DNA of 64,000 nucleotides from a virus: IMG/VR virus record IMGVR_UViG_3300045391_006247; one strand, given 5' to 3'. A model generated the notes under the pieces. That model saw only the letters and a list, made by a program, of their open reading frames with translations. It made no database searches and was not told where the DNA came from. The position numbers and the translations under genes were made by a program. This document shows, one piece after another, positions 6,034-28,083 of the stretch. Every line of letters begins with the position of its first letter. The first letter of the stretch is position 1.

Positions 6034-9000
6034 CTACGCCTTTGAAACCTCTAGGTTATCCACCCTGTATTTTGTTGCCCCAGCAGACACGGGTGAAGTC
6101 TTAATTGCGAACTGAAAATCTGTCGATGTCCCCGTTGCACCGATCGAAGTACTGTCAGCAGCGTTCGTGTCAACTTTAATTGAGGCATCAACTCCAGGAT
6201 TACACGAAAGGACGATTGAATACCATGTGCCAACAGATAGAGCAACGGTAGAATCGATCGTGTAACCTCCCCCGACATCATCAAAAATCGCAAGCCGCAA
6301 ACAGTTCACCGAGTTCCGATAGCTCAATGTCCACTCTTCATTGCCGAACATAATTAATGACGTTGCCGATCCGCTTGAAGGTTCGGCGTCAATATAAAAG
6401 TCAAACTTGATCCGCCAAGCCACAACTCCAAGGGATAGTCCCGTGTCTGTACTGGAGATAGAAGAAGTGTTGCTTATAATTGCGATCGCATTCCCTGATG
6501 TACCCGAAAGCAGAGAGCAGCCAGACCCCGACAAAACAAAACCGTTGATTGAGTCAACTTGGTTGGTCGCACTGCCCTCCATATCCCAAAACGCGATCGG
6601 TTCTAGAACGACAGGGGGTTCATACCATCCTTTAACCTCAGAATACAGAATACCTCCACGAGCCAATGCTCTAATAATCCATACCCTACCGGCAGTTGTC
6701 ACCAAGTTGGGGGCTGTTTCGTTGGGGAATCGCCACAGACTGCCAAACGTGACCGCATACCCCCCTGCGCTCGACTGTTTAAGAAGCAACTCATAATCCG
6801 CCCCATTGACAATCCCGATCGGGTTATCGATCAGGGTGTCGGCTTCAATATTGGTCTTGAATAAATTTGTTGTTGCAAGGTTTAGTGTAATAGTTGAGGC
6901 AGGTGCGATCGTTGTTATAGTTCCTGCCACAGGCTTTTGGAAGGTGTTTTGATGCTCTAAGATGGCGATCGTTTCTACCGCGCCACTGCTCTGCTGTCTT
7001 ATCTTCAAAGAGTCGCCTGAAGCAAACAGAGCGGTCTTCCCTGCGTCTGTGGTTGGAGGTTCAGTGATGCGGGTGAGAGCTAATCCACTGGAAGATTCCG
7101 CGCTCCCTGTCGCTCCGGCAACACCCGCACTCGTTACTCGTTTGTTGGTCGCGATCGTTGTTCCAGATGCCGCATTGCCCGCATAGTCTAGATTCTTTAG
7201 AGTGACTGCCGTTGTGGATGCGATCGAAACTACCTGGTAGGTTCCCCCTGTTTCGATGTAAACATTTACCCCAATTGCCATCCAGTTAGTATTTCCAACC
7301 GCAACAGAGATATTAGCCAATGCCGCAGATTGAACAAATGAAGCCGTTGTGCTTGTGTATGCTCCGGGTCCTGCTGGACCTGCCGGAGCCGCGATGCTTC
7401 CTCTTAGCTGCCATGTGTCGGTGGATATTTTTTCGTAAAGGTTGAGGACAGTCCCATCGGTAGCAATGCACTTGTCATTCTCTGTCCCATCTCCAGACGT
7501 TGGGGGCGTATCCCTCAGCAAAATATCTGAAGACTGCGCGATCGCATCTTGCAAGGCAATAAACTCAGGGATGCAGCCCAAAGATTCAGAGTGAGAAATC
7601 TTCGTGACGCGATCGTTTGAGTCGGGGAAGTAGTAAGCGATCGCAACTTGATAATCCCCTGTTGGCAGTGTCGAGGATGACGGCGAAACATCTTGAACCG
7701 TGGCATTAATCGTGTCGTACCCGAACAGGCAAAAATCAGAACTCGGGGAGGTAGGCAACGCTCCAACGATCGAACCACCAGAGAGGGTAATGATATCGAT
7801 CGTTCCTGTCGGGGCAACAGGGTCTAGCTGATAGATATTTCCTGTTGCCAACTCGACGATATAAACATAGATAAAGGGAACGTTGAAGTCTGCCGTAGTT
7901 CCCGCAATTCGATCGGGGTAATCTGACCTAACTGCCGTGGGATAATCGATCGCGAGTCTAATGCCATCGGTGCTACTCGCGATCGTCAGTGCGCTGCTCA
8001 GGGGGGATGCTGTGAATGTGCCTCCCACAGTTGAAACGATCGCTCTCACGGCTTCAGTTGTCAGGATAGTGCCAGAAGGCAAGCGATAGGCGATCGCCCC
8101 CGCCAGTGCGGCAGATACGGTGATTTTGAGGTTCGCCTGATCGGTAGGCAGTCCAATCAACTCGGTCTCACCCACGGATGGCGATCGGTATCCCCCGACA
8201 AGGCACTTGCCCGGTAATCGCTTCACCCCACCTGAGACAGGGACAATCCGCATCAAGTCACCATCAGGGAGCACAACATCCCCAACGATCGCCCATGACG
8301 AGTCGAGCTTGCCTAGCAACCCCTCCGGATATAACACAGTGGTGATTTGTGCGCCCTGTTGAATCACTGATTGAAGCTCAGCGGTCCTAAATCTAAATGT
8401 CAGTTCATACGCTGCTGCATACCCTTTCAGAAGGTCTTGAGGCAGTTCGACGGGTGAATCTGCGGCTTGCCATGTTATCGAGTCTCCTACGGTCGGAATC
8501 GAGGTGTTGAGCGTCCCCGTCGATCGCCTTACATACCCCAATAGCTTGAAGTAAGCACGACCTGAAAAAGCATCCGTGACGTTGCGACCGTTGGCTTTCA
8601 GTTGAAGAGTCAAGGATGTGCCTTGTGGTTCTGCCGCGCCACTGACCTCTTCTAGTCCGTTGGAAAACCACAGTTGAACAGGATATGAGTCTGACCCTGA
8701 ACCACCGTAAGCCGGAGGGGAATAGAGCACATCCTCGGGCAGGATGTTGATCAAAGGGCGATCGCATCCTCCCGCATCTGTCGTGGCAGCAAGATAGGTC
8801 GAGATGTTCACTAGACTCTCACTCACCCAATAGCCTGACGAAGCCCCATAAAGCCCTGACTCCGCGATCGGGTCGTATTTGACGTACTCGCTCGTGGATG
8901 CGATCAGTCGCGTCATGCCATACAGTAATCCAGATGTCGGCAAAGCGGCAGGATTGGCAACAGCAGGAACGATCGCGGTTTGAGAGTCCAAGGTCAAGTC

Positions 9001-9369
9001 TACCGAATAGGGGAAGGTGAGATAATCCCCCTGCCCTGGGTAATTGATGCCGCCAACGGTCAAGAGGTCGCGAGTTCTGATGCTGAACAACCGCTTCATG
9101 TTTGTGGGCGTGTTCGTCGTTGCCGCGCTGATGATGTACTCATAGATATCCTCAGCGCTCGCCCTTGCCGCAGCAGTAAAAGCGATCGTCACTTTTCCCC
9201 CACTGCCCCAAGTCGTTTGAACGGGGGAAGATAAAAGATTTCGCCCTACCCGGTTAATTGCCTGCACCGAGAACCAGAGCGAGCCTGCGGTCAAACTTCC
9301 ACCCGTTCCTGCGGTGAAAGTTACTCCGGGTGTCTGTTGCCGAGTCGAAGCATAAGAACTAATAGACAT
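6034..9369 (-). CDS. Large tail fibre / receptor-binding protein with C-terminal LamG/concanavalin-like domain
   Basis: 1111 aa, Ser/Thr/Gly rich, GPAGPAG hinge, terminal PIAFWDMEG...GTWYSIVL...YRVDNL LamG-like pattern. Confidence 0.7.
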   Translation of the reverse strand: MSISSYASTRQQTPGVTFTAGTGGSLTAGSLWFSVQAINRVGRNLLSSPVQTTWGSGGKVTIAFTAAARASAEDIYEYIISAATTNTPTNMKRLFSIRTRDLLTVGGINYPGQGDYLTFPYSVDLTLDSQTAIVPAVANPAALPTSGLLYGMTRLIASTSEYVKYDPIAESGLYGASSGYWVSESLVNISTYLAATTDAGGCDRPLINILPEDVLYSPPAYGGSGSDSYPVQLWFSNGLEEVSGAAEPQGTSLTLQLKANGRNVTDAFSGRAYFKLLGYVRRSTGTLNTSIPTVGDSITWQAADSPVELPQDLLKGYAAAYELTFRFRTAELQSVIQQGAQITTVLYPEGLLGKLDSSWAIVGDVVLPDGDLMRIVPVSGGVKRLPGKCLVGGYRSPSVGETELIGLPTDQANLKITVSAALAGAIAYRLPSGTILTTEAVRAIVSTVGGTFTASPLSSALTIASSTDGIRLAIDYPTAVRSDYPDRIAGTTADFNVPFIYVYIVELATGNIYQLDPVAPTGTIDIITLSGGSIVGALPTSPSSDFCLFGYDTINATVQDVSPSSSTLPTGDYQVAIAYYFPDSNDRVTKISHSESLGCIPEFIALQDAIAQSSDILLRDTPPTSGDGTENDKCIATDGTVLNLYEKISTDTWQLRGSIAAPAGPAGPGAYTSTTASFVQSAALANISVAVGNTNWMAIGVNVYIETGGTYQVVSIASTTAVTLKNLDYAGNAASGTTIATNKRVTSAGVAGATGSAESSSGLALTRITEPPTTDAGKTALFASGDSLKIRQQSSGAVETIAILEHQNTFQKPVAGTITTIAPASTITLNLATTNLFKTNIEADTLIDNPIGIVNGADYELLLKQSSAGGYAVTFGSLWRFPNETAPNLVTTAGRVWIIRALARGGILYSEVKGWYEPPVVLEPIAFWDMEGSATNQVDSINGFVLSGSGCSLLSGTSGNAIAIISNTSSISSTDTGLSLGVVAWRIKFDFYIDAEPSSGSATSLIMFGNEEWTLSYRNSVNCLRLAIFDDVGGGYTIDSTVALSVGTWYSIVLSCNPGVDASIKVDTNAADSTSIGATGTSTDFQFAIKTSPVSAGATKYRVDNLEVSKA

Positions 9370-9389: not shown

Positions 9390-9626
9390 TTACTGATCTA
9401 ATCCCAGCCAATCGCGATCGCTTTGTTCTACTGATTCGACTTCAATAGAAACGAAAGAATTAATTCGAGTTAAAAGAAATCCAACAAATGCTTGATCTGT
9501 CAAACCTGCCGGACGCAAAGAGGCAACAAGTTCCTTGAACGATTCATCCCCTTCAACGCTGAACGTATCCGCTGCTGCCGCTATAGACCCAATCCGATCG
9601 CTCATTCTGTAAAACGCTATTTTCAT
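9390..9626 (-). CDS. Small protein coupled to the kinase gene (candidate immunity/partner)
   Basis: 78 aa, ATGA overlap with 9623..11077. Confidence 0.7.
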   Translation of the reverse strand: MKIAFYRMSDRIGSIAAAADTFSVEGDESFKELVASLRPAGLTDQAFVGFLLTRINSFVSIEVESVEQSDRDWLGLDQ

Positions 9627-11077
9627 TTGAATCTTGCCTGCAATAAACTACGTTGTTCAGCCGTTAGTCCACCAAAAAAGTCTTGAAGTGAAGTGTCTTT
9701 TTTGGGTGGTTCCGGCTCATGCATAATGTCCCCTAATCTCACCCTGTTCTGAGATTTGCTGAGTTGTTCAATGCGATCGATTCTGGCTTCCAACCCCGAA
9801 GAATCTATGCCGGAAGCTTTTGCTGCACTCAATATCTCAGCTTTTGAGTTCAGGATTGACTGAACATCCTCATTGTTAAGCTCAAGATCTCTAACTTTTT
9901 GGTTTGAAGCCTTCCGAGGATTGGAGGTGTCGTAACCAAACTTGTCTCGAACCAACGTGTTGACAGCTATATCAAGCTTGTCTTTTGGTGTGCCCAAGTT
10001 TTTCTGAGTTACTTCATGAAAAGCGAAGCCATGATCAAACAAAACAGGACTGCCACTTCCATCGACACTAATGTTTGCAGCATGTCGATCTGTATTACCA
10101 ATGATGTAGTCAAAAGCTATTACCTTCAAAGCATCCCGATCGCCGATCTTTTTAATTGCTTTAAGGTTTCCAATATTAGAAACCTCGTCTTTTTCCAAAA
10201 ACGGCATCACAACTGCTGTCTTTTTCTTGACAGTCACCTTTTCGATCGGAACGGTGATGCCATCCAACCCCATTCGTTTAGCGATCTCATAAGCAAGAGT
10301 CTCAATCTTTGCTTCTTTTAAGGGTGTCTGCTTCACGAAATAATCTTTGCCGTCAATACTCGTTTTGGAAATTAAACCCAAATCACCGGCGCCCGATTGA
10401 ACTTTTAATTTTTCAAAAGTTGTTTTGTCAAATTGATCTTGAGACGGGAACTTAACGGCTCTCGACTTTGAAACTGTTTTGACTTGACTCTTTTCGGGTG
10501 TAGGCTTAACTTTTGGACTGCTTGGCTCAGCTTTGTGTGATTCAACAATAGCTTTCACAACCTCGGATTGCTGCGGTGTTGGCTTGTATCGACAGTTCAA
10601 GCTCCCACCCTGGCATTTTTTGCCGCACAGCATATTACCGGGTTTGCAGGTTGGTGTTTTCCTAGTTTTAGTTGTGGTAGATGCAAACTCGATCGCCTCC
10701 ACCCAGTCTCTGTCGTCGGCTTCATTAAACTCTGACATGTTGGGATTCACGGATTGAACAGGCATCAGCTTGTAATCCCAAGCTTCGGGGGACATCGTGA
10801 ATTGATAAAACTGAGATTTGGCAAGACTCAGCTTTTGCTCTGCTTTCCCTTTGATCGTGCTAGTAACAGTGTCGATCGTCAAGTCGAAGACACGTTGAAT
10901 CACACCCCCCACTTCTTCATCAAGAAGCGATCGCACTCTCTCTAAAACCTGCGGACTGCTAACGGTCGTCTCGGAAAACACAACAAGTGTTAACTTTCCC
11001 TCTTTAATTGATTGAAACAATCGCCCCAACTCAGCAAAAGCTTCAATTCTACTCGCCATCATATTTCTAACCCCCAA
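9623..11077 (-). CDS. Cargo-family paralog 3: shared N-terminal module plus PI3/4-kinase/HipA-like kinase domain
   Basis: YFVK, E.LAYEIAKRMGL, FDYIIGNTDRHAAN and LFDHG kinase motifs; N-terminus near-identical to 24796..26442; likely start is ATG at 11062 or 11059. Confidence 0.85.
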   Translation of the reverse strand: MGVRNMMASRIEAFAELGRLFQSIKEGKLTLVVFSETTVSSPQVLERVRSLLDEEVGGVIQRVFDLTIDTVTSTIKGKAEQKLSLAKSQFYQFTMSPEAWDYKLMPVQSVNPNMSEFNEADDRDWVEAIEFASTTTKTRKTPTCKPGNMLCGKKCQGGSLNCRYKPTPQQSEVVKAIVESHKAEPSSPKVKPTPEKSQVKTVSKSRAVKFPSQDQFDKTTFEKLKVQSGAGDLGLISKTSIDGKDYFVKQTPLKEAKIETLAYEIAKRMGLDGITVPIEKVTVKKKTAVVMPFLEKDEVSNIGNLKAIKKIGDRDALKVIAFDYIIGNTDRHAANISVDGSGSPVLFDHGFAFHEVTQKNLGTPKDKLDIAVNTLVRDKFGYDTSNPRKASNQKVRDLELNNEDVQSILNSKAEILSAAKASGIDSSGLEARIDRIEQLSKSQNRVRLGDIMHEPEPPKKDTSLQDFFGGLTAEQRSLLQARFK

Positions 11078-11282
11078 AACTATCGGTACGTCCCAACTGT
11101 TCAGACGCGATCGAGAAACCGATCACCCCTATCTGAGTCCTATTCCTTTTCAACACCTGATATCCGTCCGGATACAAAGGGGTGGGGGCTTTCGTCGTTA
11201 CTTGCAGGCGATTGTTCAGAATGTCTTCTTGCAGTTGCGCGATCGCGGTTTGAATCCGTGCGGACTTGGGGACGTATTCCAT
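11067..11282 (-). CDS. Hypothetical protein
   Basis: 71-aa ATG ORF overlapping the kinase gene start. Confidence 0.5.
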   Translation of the reverse strand: MEYVPKSARIQTAIAQLQEDILNNRLQVTTKAPTPLYPDGYQVLKRNRTQIGVIGFSIASEQLGRTDSFGG

Positions 11283-11478
11283 CGTTTGTATTGTCGGAAA
11301 TGCCTCAATTTTACTTCCGTTTCTACGGAATGCCTGATTTAGGGGCGATCGGACTGGATATCTAAATAGATTTAGGGGTTGATTATGACGATCGTCGGTT
11401 GGGTTGCGTTCGGTTTTATTGTGGGGATGGTTGCAACGATCTTTGTTTTGGCGATGGCTTCGGCTGCGGATTAATGGG

Positions 11479-11825
11479 GTGTTCCAACCTGTTTATAAAT
11501 GCGTTCCAACCCATCGATCGAGGTTGACACGCCTGAAACCCTTGATTTATATAGGGCGTGTCAACCGTGTCAACCGTTCAAGCTGTTTTCCCTAGAGGGG
11601 AAATTTCTGCGCTGTTTTTCAGGGTGGGGAGAGACCACTGTAGTCTTATATTTACTAAGTCTTCTCTTTGAGGTTGGAACAGTTATATACAGTAAAGCCG
11701 GTGCATTGATTTATAAGGCTTTCAGCCGTGGCAACCTCAAAAGCAGGGTTGGAACAGGTGACTTCACCCCAAAAAAGCGATCGCGCAAAGTCTTGATTTA
11801 CTGCGGTTTTCACCCCGTTCCAACC
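11479..11825 (-). repeat. Dispersed ori-like repeat, copy B (non-coding)
   Basis: 30-bp exact match of 11571-11600 to 58823-58852; same core and iterons as other copies. Confidence 0.9.
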
Positions 11826-11927
11826 TGGATGGGCGATCGGATAAGATTGATTTTCCTTTTTCCTATTGACAGTCTTCTAAAAGTTGGGGTAAAGCTGGGG
11901 TAACACTAAAACAAAGGACATCAAGCA

Positions 11928-12437
11928 ATGAATATTCCAACTAAAGAAGCCCTAGAATCTGTTTTGAGCCAGCTTGAAGCCCAAAAAATAGATAAAGTTG
12001 CGAACGATCTTGATGCGTTAATAGGGTCGATCGTTCTCAGGAGATACGAAGACCCTAAGTTCTCTCATGATGGTGGTTGTCATACTGTTTACACGATCGA
12101 ATTCAGCAATATGAATGCGCCATTAGAGTGCGAAACCGACTTGGTTGAATGGGTGTATCAAGAAACTTACGACCCCAATGGTTTCATGGCTCATTACACT
12201 TTTTATGGTGTTCCTGTTTGGGCGTTCTGGAATGAGATCAGATATTTTGGGGGCGAACCTCAACCTGACGCTCAAACTTCTTATGAATGCACGCCGAAAG
12301 AGTGGAATCGCGATAAAGCAAAAGAGCTTGGCATGGTGGAAGTCAAAATATCTATCAACATGAGCGACTTTAGCTGGTATGAAAAGAGATTGAGAGAAAT
12401 GCTGGGAAAGTCTGCCGAGCTTGCGGCAAACCCCTAG
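11928..12437 (+). CDS. Hypothetical protein (moron-like, opposite strand to tail genes)
   Basis: 169-aa ATG ORF with upstream AAGGA. Confidence 0.7.
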   Translation: MNIPTKEALESVLSQLEAQKIDKVANDLDALIGSIVLRRYEDPKFSHDGGCHTVYTIEFSNMNAPLECETDLVEWVYQETYDPNGFMAHYTFYGVPVWAFWNEIRYFGGEPQPDAQTSYECTPKEWNRDKAKELGMVEVKISINMSDFSWYEKRLREMLGKSAELAANP

Positions 12438-12741
12438 CCAAACAAAACCGATCGGGTTATTGCAAAGCTCATGTAGAGCAATCACCCGATCGCAAGTCTC
12501 GCAAGCCACACAAATATCGTTAAGCGATCGCTCAAATCAAAAGCCGATATGGGAATTCCCGTATCGGCTTTTGATTGAAATGGTGGACATGAAAAACCGC
12601 CCGGTGAGGGGCGGCAGGAAGGAAGGAACATGAACCGTGAAAACTTTACGCCGATTGCTCATCTAGGGCTACCCTCCATCGATTTCTGCGATTTCAAATC
12701 GCAAAATTCCAAACGCTTGCTCTGACTAGCTTTGATACGCC

Positions 12742-24124: not shown

Positions 24125-24370
24125 TTGACAGATATGCAATCATCGCTCGCACTTCAGATTACAGAGTCAGACCCATACAAAAGACAGGGTGCGATCGTTG
24201 AGATGGCAAGAATAGCAACAAGAAAAAGCCGCAAAGATTTAGCGACTGAACTTTCCGTAACTCCGGAAACAGTTCGATTGTGGGAGAAGGGCGATCGCAC
24301 CATTAGTGGAGTGATGCTGGGCAGGATTGCGATCGCGCTTGGGCAGGATGTGTCGTTGTTTTTGAGTTAA
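24125..24370 (+). CDS. XRE-family HTH regulator (inverted insert in head module)
   Basis: SRKDLATELSVTPETVRLWEKGDRTI HTH. Confidence 0.8.
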   Translation: MTDMQSSLALQITESDPYKRQGAIVEMARIATRKSRKDLATELSVTPETVRLWEKGDRTISGVMLGRIAIALGQDVSLFLS

Positions 24371-24375
24371 GAATT

Positions 24376-24699
24376 ATGAGCGTATCTCGCTGGCTGTGCT
24401 TATTGACTAAAGAAGAGTTTGAGGTCGCCCAGACTAATCATGGGTATGGTGAGAGCTGGTTTCACGGGCTAATTCCCCTTCATCCCTGCTTTGAATTTGG
24501 CGACGGACGGGATGAGAACGAGTTAGGAGAACCGCTCAGTAGCGACTGCTACGACCTACAAGATGAACCCTTTGCCGCTAATACTGATAGGCTCAAGGCT
24601 TTGTACGAGCAGTGCTCTGACTTTGACGAAGCAAAATGGGATGCCATCGAACAAACAGCATCCCACTCCGATCGATATATTTATTTTTATTCGGAATAG
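24376..24699 (+). CDS. Hypothetical acidic protein
   Basis: 107-aa ORF 5 nt after the XRE gene. Confidence 0.7.
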   Translation: MSVSRWLCLLTKEEFEVAQTNHGYGESWFHGLIPLHPCFEFGDGRDENELGEPLSSDCYDLQDEPFAANTDRLKALYEQCSDFDEAKWDAIEQTASHSDRYIYFYSE

Positions 24700-24795: not shown

Positions 24796-26442
24796 TTACA
24801 CCCCCAAGAACTCTTCGTTAGCTAAATCAGCAAAATCCAAAGCTTCAAACGAATACCACCATTCGTCTGAAATTTCCGAGAAGTTGAGTTCTTTTTTAAG
24901 CTTGTTGTAAGCGTTATTTATTCTCTCAAATTCCTGAGAAGAACCACCTACGTCTGGATGCGCCTGCAAAGACGCTTTACGGTAAGCAGTTTTAATTTGC
25001 GCTGGGGTAGCGTCCTTGGAAACGCCAAGAACATCGCGAGATGCCGAGGGATGCAAAGCACCTTGCAAATGTCTTTTGATTAGCTCACGTTGACGGTTTT
25101 CAGTTGCAGCAGGTACTTCGCGATCGGGGGGTGGGGCATACTCTGCTTTAAATCCCAAGACTGATTCAAGCTGCTCTTGAATCGTTTTTTGATCTCCTTT
25201 TGCAATTCGAGTCTGGATTTTTTTGGCTGTCGCTTCTTGTTTTGCTTGATCCGCGTCGAATTCTTCTTCTACCCTCTTCCGTAGTTCGTCTTGCGATAAT
25301 TTCAGCCGATCGGTAAGCCGTTTAGCCGTAGCTTGAGCAGACTCTTTTTCGGTTTCTTGCTGCTTGAGCTGCTTTTCTAATTTTGCTTTGACAGTTGGCT
25401 TTGTCTTGGGGTTCGCAATTTTAGCTTTCGTAGCCTCGATCGTGGCGTCGGTTATAAACGCATACCGCTGCCAATCGCCGTAGTCAATTCCATCCGCATT
25501 TTTCTTGACGTTGTCTTCGTGGAGTTCCTTTGCAACTTGATTCAAGTAGGCATTCTTGTCTCCCATTGCACGCCTCACCTCGTCTGGGGCGTCCTCCCAA
25601 TATTGGGACCCAGAAGGTTTGTATCGCCTCTCCAACTTTGAGCGCAATGTCAACCCTTCGGCACTGGTGTTATAGGCGAGCTGATCTTTAATCCAACCGT
25701 CGATATCAGCGTTACTCGGGTTGTCAGAAGCGTACTTTTGATCGATTTTTTCTTGCTCTGACTTTGGTGTGGACGATTTAGATTCTGAATCAGACGATTT
25801 TGATTCGGTTTTCGTCAACTTGCCAGCAATAGGAGAGATCGACCCACCTTTCGTCGTCGGAGTGTCAGAAGTTGCCTCACTAGGACTTGTAGTAGTTTTC
25901 TTGGCTTTAGTCTTAGCCTTAGTTGCAACAGTCTCAACAGCTTGCGATTGCTCATGGCTCGGAGCGTAGCGGCAATTTTTCTTTCCGTCCTGGCATTTCC
26001 CTCCGCACTGTGTGTTACCCGGCTTGCAGTTGAGTTTTTTGGATGCCCTAGCCGATTTAGACTTAACCGCTGTCGCTGCAAACTCGATCGCCCCCGCCCA
26101 GTCCTCGTCGTTGTTCTCGTCAAACTCTGCCATTTCAGGATTGACGGACTGAGCAGGGATGAGTTTGTAATCCCAAGCCGATGGCGACATTGAGAACTGG
26201 TAAAACTGAGATTTTGCAAGACTTAGTTTTTGCTCCGCTTTACCCCTAAATGTGTTTGTGTTAGAGTCGATCGTCAAGTCGAAGACACGTTGAATCACAC
26301 CCCCCACTTCTTCATCAAGAAGCGATCGCACCTCTCCTAAAATTTCAGGGTCAGTAACGGGGATTGATTCAGAAAAGTTTTGACTCTCTTGATAAAGTTT
26401 TCCTAGTTCTACAAAAGCTTTAGCGCGATCGGTTAACAGCAT
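24796..26442 (-). CDS. Cargo-family paralog 2: shared N-terminal module plus C-terminal DnaJ J-domain
   Basis: RDVLGVSKDATPAQIKTAYRKASLQAHPDVGGSSQEFERINNAYNKL with intact HPD. Confidence 0.85.
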   Translation of the reverse strand: MLLTDRAKAFVELGKLYQESQNFSESIPVTDPEILGEVRSLLDEEVGGVIQRVFDLTIDSNTNTFRGKAEQKLSLAKSQFYQFSMSPSAWDYKLIPAQSVNPEMAEFDENNDEDWAGAIEFAATAVKSKSARASKKLNCKPGNTQCGGKCQDGKKNCRYAPSHEQSQAVETVATKAKTKAKKTTTSPSEATSDTPTTKGGSISPIAGKLTKTESKSSDSESKSSTPKSEQEKIDQKYASDNPSNADIDGWIKDQLAYNTSAEGLTLRSKLERRYKPSGSQYWEDAPDEVRRAMGDKNAYLNQVAKELHEDNVKKNADGIDYGDWQRYAFITDATIEATKAKIANPKTKPTVKAKLEKQLKQQETEKESAQATAKRLTDRLKLSQDELRKRVEEEFDADQAKQEATAKKIQTRIAKGDQKTIQEQLESVLGFKAEYAPPPDREVPAATENRQRELIKRHLQGALHPSASRDVLGVSKDATPAQIKTAYRKASLQAHPDVGGSSQEFERINNAYNKLKKELNFSEISDEWWYSFEALDFADLANEEFLGV

Positions 26443-26500: not shown

Positions 26501-26689
26501 TTACATCCCAAATAATCTTTGCTCAACCATATAAAAACCTTCGATCGCCTGTCTTGCTTCGTTGGCTTCCTGTTCGGGCAATCCGGACAAACCTCTAGCA
26601 ATATTTCTTACCTCATCCCTTGAGTTTTCTAAGTTCACGAGTGTTAGCTGTTGAGTTAACTCTTTGACTCTGTCTGCTGTGTTTGTCAT
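26501..26689 (-). CDS. Small protein coupled to the metalloprotease gene (candidate immunity/partner)
   Basis: 62 aa, ATGA overlap with 26686..28083. Confidence 0.7.
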   Translation of the reverse strand: MTNTADRVKELTQQLTLVNLENSRDEVRNIARGLSGLPEQEANEARQAIEGFYMVEQRLFGM

Positions 26690-28083
26690 TTCTTTTTACT
26701 TTGGGCTGCAAGTTCTAGTGTGTCTTCAATGAATTTATGCCCGATCGGATCAAAAGCCTTGTAGGATTCCCCGTCAAGCACCCACGCGGCAAAATGCTCG
26801 GCAAACCACTCATCGTTGTTGGTATTAGCGTAACTTGTCAGGGTTTTGGTATCGTCTGGGTATATAACCATGCGAGCCGAATCAGCCTTAAACAGTACTT
26901 GATGTCCCACTTCGTGTAGATATGTCGACAAAGTCGCAGTATCCGGATCAACAGCGATCGATGATATTGAATGCCTCGGCAATTCAAATTCATGGGCGGT
27001 AATTGCACTCTGAATGGTCGCGCCCAAGTCTCGAGCATCAGGCGAAAACCTTCCCGACTTGCCTTCTCGAATATTAACAAACACATGATTTGCGATTTGT
27101 ATTGTATGCCCATTTGCCCCATCAAGCGGAGTAACAGAAGGTGAGATCGCCTTAAAAAAATCAGGATGTTCTCTGTTGATTTTTTCTCTCACCCTTCCGC
27201 CCGCAATAACAACACCTTTCGACTCCTGCCAGTAACGATATCGATCGTCGTTAATGAAGTCGTAATTTTTGACTCCCTTTGCGATAGTCTTGGCTTGAGC
27301 AAGATAACCAGGAGCTTCCTCATCCCAAAACGCAGCCTGGACCTCGTGCTTGTTAACAAACGATCGGAACTTCTCAACCCTTTCCGCCGCTCCAGATGTG
27401 GGGATGCTGTCGAGAGCATTTTCGAGGGCAGCCTGAGTAACTCTTGATTTAATTCCGATCGTATGACCATCAAACATTTTTGCCCCAGACTTAGGGGTAA
27501 CACCCGCATCTTGTGCAGCTTTCGGAGTACTTGTTTTAGGTGCGATCGAGTTTGTTTCTGACGGTTTTAATGTGCCCGCCTTTATCGCTGCGGCTTTGGC
27601 TTTTCTGACAACTGACTGAGCCTTCTTCTTTTGCTCTGGACTCATGCCGTGATAGCAGTTGAGCGTCTCTTTTTGGCACTTTCCCCCGCATTGCATGTTG
27701 CCGGGTCGGCAGTTGAGCTTCTTGCCACTTCTAGCAACAAACTCAACAAGATCACCCCAGTCCTCGTCGGACTCCCCAAATCCAACAGGAGAACTTACAA
27801 CCTTGTACACAATGCGATCAGGGGTAATCGTGAAGCCATAAGTCCGAATTCTAGACAAAGAAACCCTTTGATCAGCCTTCCCTTTTAGGGTGTCGGTGTC
27901 AGGGTCAAGGGTTAACTCAAACACTCGCTCAAGGTCGCCAACTTCATCCTCTAACAGCGATCGCACATCCCCCGCCACATCTGAATCGAAAATAGCGATC
28001 GGTTCAGCAAAACTGCCAACCAAAGAAGCAAGCCAAACTTTTCCCAGTTCAGCAAAAGCTTTGGCGCGATCGGTTAACAACAC
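26686..28083 (-). CDS. Cargo-family paralog 1: shared N-terminal module plus zincin metallopeptidase (lethal-factor/MPTase-like)
   Basis: YLHEVGH (HExxH) followed by TSYANTNNDEWFAEHF third-ligand motif. Confidence 0.85.
   Translation of the reverse strand: MLLTDRAKAFAELGKVWLASLVGSFAEPIAIFDSDVAGDVRSLLEDEVGDLERVFELTLDPDTDTLKGKADQRVSLSRIRTYGFTITPDRIVYKVVSSPVGFGESDEDWGDLVEFVARSGKKLNCRPGNMQCGGKCQKETLNCYHGMSPEQKKKAQSVVRKAKAAAIKAGTLKPSETNSIAPKTSTPKAAQDAGVTPKSGAKMFDGHTIGIKSRVTQAALENALDSIPTSGAAERVEKFRSFVNKHEVQAAFWDEEAPGYLAQAKTIAKGVKNYDFINDDRYRYWQESKGVVIAGGRVREKINREHPDFFKAISPSVTPLDGANGHTIQIANHVFVNIREGKSGRFSPDARDLGATIQSAITAHEFELPRHSISSIAVDPDTATLSTYLHEVGHQVLFKADSARMVIYPDDTKTLTSYANTNNDEWFAEHFAAWVLDGESYKAFDPIGHKFIEDTLELAAQSKKK

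Follow-up and report, generated by a model that had tools for sequence, protein, structure and literature searches.

A candidate virion-delivered kinase and its coupled HipS-like partner in a soil cyanophage

Kinases related to HipA can be held by a small protein that is encoded separately from the catalytic core. In the HipBST toxin-antitoxin systems of E. coli O127 and Legionella (PDB 7ab3, 8ezr/8ezs, 7vkb), the core kinase HipT lacks the N-subdomain of HipA and is encoded beside HipS, a small alpha/beta protein with the shape of the HipA N-domain. HipS blocks HipT by reaching into the HipT active site; in full-length HipA, the equivalent N-subdomain belongs to the active enzyme (PMC10627512). 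We describe here a similar pair, a core kinase and a 78-residue alpha/beta protein, encoded in a virus genome (IMG/VR record IMGVR_UViG_3300045391_006247; the whole stretch of 64,000 nucleotides that was analysed is referred to as the window). As in HipBST, the partner is predicted at the active site of the kinase, and gene order varies among the relatives as it does in the Hip families. The phage kinase differs in being only a distant structural relative of HipT (Z 12) that scores below the cut-offs of HipA_C and HipA_2, in carrying an N-terminal carrier module and in sitting among late virion genes. Its partner is a third shorter than HipS (65-78 versus ~100 residues) and has no Couple_hipA match, and the pair lacks a HipB regulator.

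A second group of comparable systems consists of effectors associated with phage heads. In the MuF polymorphic toxins of temperate phages, a constant head-associated N-terminal domain is followed by a variable C-terminal effector, and most of the toxin genes precede a small ORF that has been interpreted as conferring immunity (Jamet et al., 2017, PMC5576092). The locus described here has the same layout, including the small downstream ORF, and one relative of its kinase (P0007) is a true MuF fusion, but its carrier is an uncatalogued four-cysteine module and its genome has no MuF domain; the word "kinase" is absent from the main text of PMC5576092. Polyvalent proteins, for which co-delivery with the DNA and modification of host proteins have been predicted (Iyer et al., 2017, PMC5512222), contain the same kinase domain alongside MuF, ParB, InPase, NUDIX, LigT and zincin domains. 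In contrast, the kinase of the window (P0001) has only one recognisable effector domain behind its carrier and keeps the full helical C-lobe, and no cognate small partner was described for the polyvalent proteins (PMC5512222). A HipA-superfamily kinase has also been found among the late head genes of tailed gut phages, the "Gratiaviridae" (Benler et al., 2021, PMC8008677). Its proposed role was superinfection immunity, exerted together with an ATPase and a glycosyltransferase, and, unlike in the present case, neither a carrier module nor a HipS-like partner was reported (PMC8008677).

Two further kinases are relevant by fold. Among solved bacterial kinases, CtkA (JHP0940) of Helicobacter pylori (PDB 3akj/3akk/3akl) comes nearest by Foldseek, and it offers a parallel as a compact atypical Ser/Thr kinase whose site of action is outside its producer cell, although the identity is 16-18% and the target cells of CtkA are eukaryotic. 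To our knowledge, CtkA has no carrier module or small partner. The type II phosphatidylinositol 4-kinases (PI4K; PDB 4hne, 8a5x, 9hhm) give the best fold match (~216 residues aligned) and share the D-R-H-x2-N and D-x-G signatures with the phage kinase; they differ as eukaryotic lipid kinases with palmitoylation and membrane-binding inserts, at 13-16% identity.

Layout of the locus and history of its carrier module

The two genes of the pair had been called from their open frames in a preliminary description of this DNA, and both ORFs are real: one of 484 residues from a TTG at 11077 (9623..11077, minus strand) and one of 78 residues, joined by an ATGA stop/start overlap that can be read directly. 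The TTG is an alternative start for the kinase, and the ATG at 11062 is likely the better one, because a GGGGG run lies upstream, the N-termini of the paralogs agree with it and the gene caller picks it. The features of the locus are collected in the table. Between the carrier module and the kinase domain, the linker differs among relatives in length and composition, and model pLDDT is low at its end.

Table. Coordinates in the window of the kinase gene, its parts and the adjoining features
Feature	Position	Strand	Basis
Candidate cargo kinase gene (P0001, 479 aa)	9623..11062	-	ORF list, gene-caller start, identical database protein
N-terminal carrier module, residues 1-160	10583..11062	-	BLASTP to two paralogs, alignment A1
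Four-cysteine motif C-K-P-G-N-x2-C-G-x2-C-x6-C, residues 139-157, at the module end	10592..10648	-	Alignment A1
66-bp identical tract	10871..10936	-	Exact match to 26266-26331 in the DnaJ paralog
Low-complexity Lys/Pro/Ser-rich linker, residues 161-205	10448..10582	-	Sequence
Atypical kinase domain and C-terminal tail, residues 206-479 (274 aa)	9626..10447	-	Pfam, catalytic columns, AF2 model
Partner gene, 78 aa, HipS-like small alpha/beta protein	9390..9626	-	ATGA overlap, adjacency, model, co-fold
Non-coding repeat-rich upstream region, 850 bp	11078..11927	.	No conserved ORF

The carrier module is shared with two other genes of the window, as had been noticed earlier. By BLASTP, the N-terminal ~175 residues match the products of 24796..26442(-) at 58% (E 4e-68) and of 26686..28083(-) at 37% (E 1e-29), and the nearer of these paralogs lies 13.7 kb away, in agreement with the ~14 kb first estimated. 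The paralogs are a zincin peptidase and a J-domain (DnaJ) protein encoded directly after a Mu-type portal gene, and a small coupled ORF also follows the zincin paralog. Alignment A1 of the module has 49 invariant columns, among them the four cysteines C139, C146, C150 and C157; a reduced form of the four-cysteine motif is present in P0009, P0013 and the kinase of locus L010. The domains found C-terminal to the module vary and include kinase, DnaJ, zincin and ParB-like domains, among others. The module has no match in Pfam or among PDB sequences, and a structure search of the Atlas, made from a poor model, returned only matches with TM < 0.4. Phage_Mu_F (PF04233) has no six-frame match at E up to 1 in the 69.8-kb genome.

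The kinase gene had been thought to result from duplication of the module at a new locus. The sharing of the module holds, but this account of the gene's origin needs correction. The unit of module, kinase and small gene is also found in the distant phages L004 and L005, with kinase domains only 26-29% identical; thus the fusion of module and kinase is older than this phage. As judged from the sequences, the recent event is instead a homogenisation of the module with its paralogs. The 66-bp tract that is identical to the DnaJ paralog lies between 30-nt windows that are 21-26/30 identical within the module and about 10/30 identical outside it, and by this pattern it is a gene-conversion footprint between modules. 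In addition, the module of the kinase groups with those of the DnaJ paralog and of P0002/P0003 (from another contig) and not with the modules of other kinases.

Unlike the paralogs, the kinase and its partner form a separate transcription unit 13.7 kb from the head genes, with an opposite-strand gene adjoining. The pair is tightly followed by a late-type gene for a 1111-aa protein (6034..9369, minus strand), which starts 20 nt downstream and is probably co-transcribed with it. This protein, at first called a large tail fibre, matches only phrog_31840 (unknown function) and, below threshold, Laminin_G_3; PDB sequence searches with it and with an 847-aa neighbour returned nothing. On the upstream side, the adjoining "ori-like" repeat stretch that had been pointed out does exist, as 850 bp of non-coding DNA with an inverted repeat (11503-11543 / 11715-11755) and the tandem repeat GTGTCAACC. 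It is presumed to be the promoter region of an operon comprising the kinase, the small gene and the 1111-aa gene; no match to the sigma-70 consensus was found in 11078-11927. Among public sequencing runs, the stretch was found only in its probable source, a soil metagenome, and no RNA run was listed.

An atypical kinase domain on different carriers

The kinase motifs are intact, as first described. YFVK (residues 241-244 of P0001; 10331-10342), DRHAAN (residues 325-330; 10073-10090) and FDHG (residues 342-345; 10028-10039) sit in invariant or near-invariant columns of 21 relatives. They supply the ATP-binding K244, D325 and N330 of the catalytic loop (D-x4-N) and the metal-binding D343, and E254 of helix C is present as well; these positions are invariant or nearly so both in the 21 relatives of alignment A2 and in the nine of alignment A7. 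Neither alignment contains a conserved stretch of 7-10 columns.

The label "HipA/PI3K-like kinase" given to this protein at the outset is correct for the superfamily and, by score, incorrect for the HipA family. PI3_PI4_kinase (PF00454) is the sole Pfam family above its cut-off for P0001 (28.6 bits over the full protein, 29.5 over the domain alone; cut-off 27.1), with a match that spans only residues 319-368 of the ORF, the ~50 residues of the catalytic and activation loops. HipA_C (PF07804; 17.5 bits against 30.5) and HipA_2 (PF20613; 20.9-22.2 bits against 27) both remain below their cut-offs on P0001; the relative P0007 does pass HipA_2, with 34.6 bits. In the AF2 model of the kinase domain (pLDDT 86), the best fold match by VIA-align is a type II PI4K (Z 16.1, rmsd 3.6, 216 residues aligned; PI4K type II entries Z 15-16), followed by CtkA at Z 14.3 and Legionella HipT at Z 12.0, and CtkA is the top match by Foldseek (E 1.8e-6). 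Thus, the kinase is not a member of the HipA family by Pfam score, and its fold is nearest to type II PI4K and CtkA. By its motifs and its predicted two-lobed fold, it is an intact member of the HipA/CtkA/PI3K-like superfamily.

The same kinase domain is found on several other proteins. In P0007 it is fused to Phage_Mu_F and the same zincin, and other fusions join it to InPase (P0045), ParB (P0149), LigT and the XkdF protease (P0103), and NUDIX. Its top viral structural matches in BFVD are large phage proteins named as ADP-ribosyltransferase, portal and head morphogenesis proteins, and in loci L007, L008 and L015 the kinase gene lies within the head gene block. Comparison of these sequences indicates that the unit of kinase and partner moves among carriers (four-cysteine module, mini-module and MuF) and among genome positions.

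Within the collections searched, the pair appears to be confined to a phage subfamily. The GenBank phage collection gave no match by protein or by 20 kb of DNA, and a scan of IMG/VR with the protein and the module alignment gave pattern matches only and no relative. A degenerate DNA pattern for F-D-Y-L-I-G-x2-D-R-H was found at 58 loci in 185,579 genomes. The kinases at all 58 are distant ones (best E 1e-14 against the subfamily profile), and both the small partner and the carrier module are absent from every locus, which argues for this restriction.

The partner protein and its predicted complex with the kinase

A homolog of the partner adjoins the kinase in 10 loci including the window. It is encoded downstream of the kinase in the window and in L004, L005, L006, L011, L012 and L015, and upstream in L007 and L010; in L008, the small domain is the N-terminus of a prohead protease encoded after the kinase, in one open frame of 439 aa that is known from a single 3.2-kb metagenome contig. 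The link is reciprocal, in that all loci retrieved via the small protein hold the kinase. The partner tracks the kinase domain and not the carrier, as is seen in L007, L010 and L011, whose kinases have no full module. The partner is not universal, because the MuF-zincin-kinase protein P0007 (L013) is followed by a 71-aa ORF related neither to the partner family nor to the 62-aa ORF of the window; L014 ends at the kinase stop codon and says nothing on the partner. A dedicated search for longer, fused forms of the small protein found none, which is weak evidence. A role for the small protein as a tail-fibre chaperone was rejected, since the gene on its other side is a different one in each locus, whereas all share the kinase. 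That the 78-residue ORF is a true coupled gene, as proposed at first, is upheld by this conserved adjacency and by a strong predicted co-fold over the active site.

The family of the small protein is less readily named. It has no match in Pfam, PHROGs or NCBIfam, its profile retrieved nothing meaningful from PDB sequences, and none of 11 family members matches Couple_hipA (PF13657) at E up to 10. Alignment with hhalign to 33 Couple_hipA domains gave P 0.02 over residues 2-28 only (the N-terminal hairpin), a value reached by 2/200 column shuffles. In structure comparisons, the Atlas neighbours of two independent models include Couple_hipA clusters (TM 0.46-0.51). With the small model (pLDDT 75), Foldseek gave no PDB match at E < 0.6. 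After re-alignment of the list of structural matches, the best named PDB match was the HipA N-domain 7czo (Z 4.3, rmsd 3.7, 66 residues aligned), with HipS 7ab3_E at Z 3.9 and 8ezr_A at Z 3.4; no Z reaches 5. HipS and HipA account for 4 of the top 28 among 48,161 representative chains, tied with unrelated chains at Z 3-4.4. The models thus weakly place HipA N-subdomain-1 and HipS as the nearest named structural neighbours of the partner (Z 3.5-4.3).

Co-folding places the partner over the catalytic cleft of the kinase with an ipSAE of 0.85 against 0.00 for the best control; the alignments were custom-made, and part of the score may reflect likeness to HipS-HipT, as solved HipS-HipT complexes exist. 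A mark of 0.85 was reached by 58 of 80 solved complexes and by 2 of 110 mismatched pairs. The runs have at least 75% of contacts in common, with a partner pLDDT of at least 84, and the predicted contacts involve model residues 53 and 55 (F242 and K244), 136-143 (the catalytic loop) and 153-154 (D343). A conserved C-terminal P-T-F-like motif of the kinase is also predicted at this interface, and the small protein has an invariant R54. An immunity role for the small protein is plausible. It could also bind without inhibiting, however, given that the HipA counterpart of the small protein is a subdomain of the active enzyme.

A candidate cargo kinase and what its partner may do

On balance, we favour the view that the pair comprises a virion-delivered, atypical Ser/Thr-type kinase effector of a soil cyanophage and a HipS-like cap that holds it inactive. 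Injection of the kinase, as first suggested, is plausible, considering its carrier module, the position of its paralogs beside the portal gene and the fusions of its domain to MuF, portal and polyvalent head proteins. The carrier would most likely bring the kinase into the procapsid, from which it would be ejected with the DNA to phosphorylate host proteins at the onset of infection, serving host takeover or counter-defence. By comparison with HipA/HipT and T7 gp0.7, candidate substrates would be aminoacyl-tRNA synthetases, RNA polymerase and defence proteins. Translational coupling would make the 78-residue protein in step with the kinase. This protein would lie over the Gly-rich loop and the catalytic lysine, as well as the catalytic loop and the metal-binding Asp, and would keep the kinase silent in the phage-producing cell, as HipS does HipT. 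Packaging, ejection, toxicity and inhibition are steps that we infer, and the protein nature of the substrate is an assumption, given that the nearest solved folds are those of lipid kinases. Against the cargo reading, the carrier could be assigned to no known fold or family, a MuF domain is missing from the genome and, unlike its paralogs, the kinase gene lies away from the head genes; against the cap reading, L008, in which the small domain is fused to a prohead protease, fits an adaptor role at least as well.

That fusion leads to the strongest alternative, in which the small protein binds the kinase without inhibiting it, either as an encapsidation adaptor or chaperone to the protease-scaffold core or as a detachable subunit like HipA N-subdomain-1 that is needed for activity and co-delivered. 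We consider this unlikely. The small domain heads the very protease that is encoded right after the L008 kinase, the homologous HipA subdomain is part of an active enzyme (PMC10627512), and adjacency and co-fold are compatible with any kind of binding. However, K244, the catalytic loop and D343 are all covered at the predicted interface, which would block ATP or substrate rather than help catalysis, and inhibition is found in every characterised split pair of HipS and HipT (PMC6581861, PMC10627512). The L008 fusion, moreover, comes from its one short contig with an empty search for longer forms, and the kinase of the window already has a carrier module of its own.

Quite unlikely, in our estimate, is that the pair is not virion cargo and represents a HipT/HipS-like toxin-antitoxin or abortive-infection moron of the phage or prophage, for superinfection exclusion or stabilisation of the element, with the module used in regulation or oligomerisation. 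Such a role would suit a unit that stands apart from the head genes, has 850 bp of non-coding DNA in front of it and adjoins an opposite-strand gene. HipA-family kinases between the portal and capsid genes of gut phages have been read as superinfection immunity (PMC8008677), and the pairing of a kinase with a small binder follows the classic toxin-antitoxin design (PMC8262856). Conversely, the module is common to two genes directly after the portal gene, the kinase domain is fused elsewhere to MuF, portal and polyvalent head proteins, and the pair runs closely into a late-type gene with which it is probably co-transcribed. No HipB-like HTH regulator is adjacent, and the distant cellular kinases with the motif have neither partner nor module.

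A variant of the favoured reading would make the cap a safety catch: kinase and cap would enter the procapsid together, the maturation protease would destroy or release the cap, and the kinase would be armed only in sealed particles and fire on ejection. We regard this elaboration as a long shot. The idea that the enzyme is a lipid or other small-molecule kinase like type II PI4K, altering the host envelope or a metabolite under regulation by the small protein, is very improbable: the PI4K structures are its best matches (Z 15-16) and PI3_PI4_kinase its sole Pfam family, but that match is limited to the catalytic and activation loop segment, four protein kinases (CtkA, Fam20C, HipT and actin-fragmin kinase) come only 2-5 Z units behind, phosphatidylinositol is not known as a typical lipid of cyanobacteria, and the partner resembles the regulator of a protein kinase.

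Phage proteins borne in the capsid act ahead of all phage gene expression and are therefore prime candidates for host takeover and counter-defence. We know of few such proteins with a known activity, and of no kinase among them that has been characterised experimentally. The locus described here offers a pair that is compact and open to experiment, in which a kinase domain of 274 aa comes with a 78-aa binder for which a specific interface is predicted. It joins two ideas that have been separate: polymorphic effectors that are delivered from the head and have immunity genes, and split HipA kinases under the control of HipS. If the inhibition is borne out, the small-protein family would mark the cargo kinase in metagenomes and would provide a minimal scaffold for a kinase inhibitor. 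Should the safety-catch variant be true, it would represent a new viral way to time a toxin and would extend the split-HipA principle beyond toxin-antitoxin systems, on a carrier unrelated to MuF. The pair also bears on how a phage avoids poisoning its own producer cell.

Pairing of a small gene with a divergent kinase

The 479-aa cargo kinase (P0001), its 78-aa partner and a 1111-aa protein are encoded by three minus-strand genes in tight succession (see table). The true kinase start is most likely the ATG at 11062, because it is preceded by a GGGGG run, is where the identical 479-aa database protein P0001 starts and agrees with the N-termini of the paralogs.

Features of the kinase locus and of the paralog region, in window positions
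Feature	Position	Strand	Remarks
1111-aa gene	6034..9369	-	Start 20 nt past end of 78-aa gene
78-aa partner gene	9390..9626	-	ATGA overlap with kinase gene
Kinase gene, longer reading	9623..11077	-	484 aa from TTG start
Non-coding stretch upstream of kinase operon	11078-11927		850 bp; 41-nt inverted repeat and tandem GTGTCAACC
41-nt inverted repeat	11503-11543 / 11715-11755		Upstream of kinase operon
169-aa ORF	11928-12437	+	Opposite strand, between two large late genes; no match in Pfam, PHROGs or NCBIfam
Near-perfect 42-nt palindrome	12535-12576		Past 847-aa gene
Terminator-like hairpin	12615-12596	-	Past 847-aa gene
81-aa ORF	24125-24370	+	XRE-type helix-turn-helix-looking
107-aa ORF	24376-24699	+	
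DnaJ paralog	24796..26442	-	C-terminal J-domain
62-aa helical ORF	26501-26689	-	ATGA overlap with zincin paralog stop
Zincin paralog	26686..28083	-	C-terminal H-E-x-x-H zincin; start abuts stop of Mu-type portal gene (adjacent base)

The preliminary description had taken the small gene to be coupled to the kinase; the ATGA overlap and the relatives, searched reciprocally, bear this out. A homolog adjoins the kinase in every kinase-fetched locus that extends past the kinase gene, except L013. It lies directly 3' of the kinase in L004 (70 aa), L005 (66 aa), L006 (72 aa) and L015 (65 aa) and directly 5', overlapping it by 4 bp, in L007 (65 aa). In L008 (1272-2591(+)), the partner domain forms the first ~70 residues of the prohead protease/scaffold gene after the kinase, in one 439-aa frame; this fusion was seen once, on a single 3.2-kb metagenome contig, and a search for a second fused form of the domain found none. 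Across these loci, profile E-values in small searches were 2e-16 to 1e-33. Conversely, a database search with the small-protein alignment returned ten proteins of 64-78 aa, all without annotation. The loci behind three of the ten were fetched (L009 being the same contig as L007), and a kinase adjoins the small gene in the new loci L010, L011 and L012. The link is reciprocal. The kinases of L007, L010 and L011 are without the full carrier module, and the gene on the small protein's far side varies among loci; the small protein therefore travels with the kinase domain, and neither with the carrier nor with the downstream 'tail fibre'. The pairing is not universal. In L013, the ORF after the MuF-zincin-kinase gene (P0007) is an unrelated one of 71 aa and no partner homolog, and 58 distant cellular kinases with an F-D-Y-L-I-G-x2-D-R-H motif have no partner-like neighbor. 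In L012 (2-1016(+)), the kinase occupies two ORFs (246+ aa and 88 aa), a split that is probably a frameshift or assembly error.

The kinase domain is a divergent lineage. Residues 190-479, searched exhaustively with HMMER against 1.8 billion representatives, have 249 relatives, of which only 20 fall below E 1e-10; the best is 29% identical. Alignments of 21 and 9 relatives show full or nearly full conservation of K244 (the ATP-binding Lys of Y-F-V-K), the helix-C Glu, D325 and N330 (D-R-H-A-A-N) and D343 (F-D-H-G), so the kinase looks catalytically active. In the module-bearing kinases P0042 and P0050, D-R-N replaces D-R-H in the catalytic loop, with D, N and the metal-binding Asp kept. The AlphaFold2 model (pLDDT 86) is matched best by type II PI 4-kinases in VIA-align (Z 16.1, rmsd 3.6, 216 aligned), followed by H. 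pylori CtkA (Z 14.3), Fam20C (Z 12.5), Legionella HipT (Z 12.0), actin-fragmin kinase (Z 11.4) and class I/III PI3Ks (~Z 10); the top Foldseek match is CtkA (E 1.8e-6). The earlier 'HipA/CtkA/PI3K-like' label holds at superfamily level, but by score not for the HipA family proper, as HipA_2 (20.9 bits against a cut-off of 27) and HipA_C (17.5 against 30.5) fall below their Pfam cut-offs. Pfam PI3_PI4_kinase is just over its own (28.6 against 27.1 bits), covering only the catalytic and activation loops.

Fold and predicted docking of the partner

The kinase domain and the small protein, both supplied as author-built alignments, were co-folded in three runs with three controls. The ipSAE was 0.83-0.85 in the runs and 0.00 in all three controls; of 80 solved complexes, 58 come up to this mark, as do 2 of 110 mismatched pairs. 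Two caveats are the author-built alignments and the solved HipS-HipT complexes, likeness to which may have raised the score. At least 75% of contacts are common to the runs, with a partner pLDDT of at least 84. The predicted interface is large (~120 contacts) and involves both helices of the small protein, with invariant R54 and nearly invariant S36. On the kinase side it takes in strand 1 and the loop before it, F242, K244, the catalytic loop (325-332), 342-343 including the metal-binding Asp, the 177-191 segment (model numbering) and the C-terminal tail with its P-T-F-like motif, which relatives conserve. The co-fold supports binding of the partner to the kinase, and the docking site predicted by the model is where an inhibitor would sit. 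In split-HipA systems, HipS reaches into the HipT active site and neutralizes it (PMC10627512).

The small-protein model (pLDDT 75) has three strands, two helices and a strand. Its top Atlas neighbors, with both the Atlas's own model and a separate one, are three unnamed actinobacterial clusters (TM 0.65-0.67), followed by clusters bearing Couple_hipA, the HipA N-subdomain-1 family (TM 0.46-0.51). Foldseek against PDB gave no significant match; its candidates, once re-aligned, are headed by the HipA N-domain 7czo (Z 4.3, rmsd 3.7, 66 aligned), HipS 7ab3_E (Z 3.9), HipA 3tpt (Z 3.8) and Legionella HipS 8ezr (Z 3.4). A Foldseek-free search of 48,161 representatives placed HipS/HipA at ranks 4, 6, 20 and 28, with unrelated chains tying and no chain reaching Z 5. 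No small-protein family member matched Pfam Couple_hipA, and hhalign against 33 collected Couple_hipA domains aligned the N-terminal hairpin only (P 0.02, a score equaled by 2 of 200 column shuffles). Each test is weak singly; because they combine and the neighbor is a HipA-superfamily kinase, HipS-like ancestry or convergence is considered reasonably probable.

Carrier module, host and origin of the locus

Kinase residues 1-160 match the N-termini of the DnaJ and zincin paralogs. This carrier module, which has no relative in Pfam, PDB or Atlas, has an invariant four-cysteine motif at its end, and a low-complexity linker comes after it. In other proteins the module fronts a zincin in P0003, a ParB-like domain in P0005, an unknown domain in P0002 and this kinase in P0042 and P0050. 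A 572-aa protein of a related myovirus-like contig (L006:7027-8745(+)) carries only the four-cysteine end (profile positions 114-179), which suggests the Cys motif as the carrier's minimal conserved unit. The 62-aa ORF beside the zincin paralog repeats the layout of kinase and partner, with no sequence kinship to the 78-aa protein or the L013 71-aa ORF. Within the head block, the two opposite-strand ORFs at 24125-24699 separate the prohead protease gene from the DnaJ cargo gene.

The window makes up most of an IMG/VR virus record of 69.8 kb that is ~99% complete. Its 64 kb contain the cyanobacterial HIP1 octamer GCGATCGC 86 times, where ~1 copy would be expected; such abundance marks a cyanobacterial host. 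A Coleofasciculaceae cyanobacterium MAG supplies the nearest module-bearing proteins, and a soil metagenome is the sole public sequencing run containing the stretch. These observations identify the element as a cyanobacterial phage whose host is probably filamentous. Gene junctions and the end of a 66-bp identical tract carry several of the HIP1 copies.

That tract (10871-10936) is identical to 26266-26331. The module of the window kinase is 65-67% identical to those of the DnaJ paralog and P0002/P0003 (from another contig) and only 31-45% to those of other kinases, and a tree groups it with the former (support 94/98); recombination within the genome has thus exchanged or homogenized the module. 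The module-kinase-partner unit is also found in L004 and L005, whose kinase domains are only 26-29% identical to that of the window, so the fusion is old. The gene had been proposed to arise by module duplication at a new locus, and the same unit in these distant loci speaks against it; kinase effector and partner have a history separate from that of the module.

Proposed head loading and alternative readings

Phages load effectors into the head on constant N-terminal domains, as in MuF toxins (PMC5576092) and polyvalent proteins (PMC5512222), and by analogy the kinase fits such a head-loaded effector. A MuF domain is absent from the genome (69.8-kb record searched). P0007 joins Phage_Mu_F (E 1e-11) to the same zincin and this kinase (HipA_2 34.6 bits), and the kinase domain also occurs with InPase (P0045), ParB (P0149), LigT and XkdF protease (P0103) and NUDIX (P0010). 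Among viral structures, the best matches are to large phage proteins whose annotations read ADP-ribosyltransferase, portal or head morphogenesis protein. In L007, L008 and L015, the kinase gene lies within the head block, by a Phage_tail_S-like gene, prohead protease and cement protein.

The best reading, slightly favored overall, is that the kinase effector would be expressed late and loaded into the head by the carrier module, with translational coupling supplying a HipS-like cap in stoichiometric amounts to keep it silent; once released into the next host, the kinase would phosphorylate host proteins. The L008 protease fusion, a possible Rosetta-stone link of the partner to the capsid interior, favors the cap as an adaptor or subunit instead of an inhibitor, which is judged unlikely. 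Less likely still, kinase and small protein would form a non-packaged toxin-antitoxin or exclusion module. A lipid or small molecule as the kinase substrate is very improbable.

Several elements of the proposed head-loaded, capped kinase are known: effector and immunity on a head carrier (PMC5576092), kinases within polyvalent proteins (PMC5512222), HipA-family kinases encoded among phage head genes (PMC8008677) and antitoxins of the HipS type, with kinase-first orders such as hipJS among their gene arrangements (PMC8262856). No literature description was found of this PI4K-II/CtkA-like kinase subfamily as head cargo with a dedicated mini-HipS-like partner, of kinase movement among four-cysteine carrier, mini-carrier and MuF, or of the cap-protease fusion. 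The main new result is the small gene as a real, cognate partner of the kinase.
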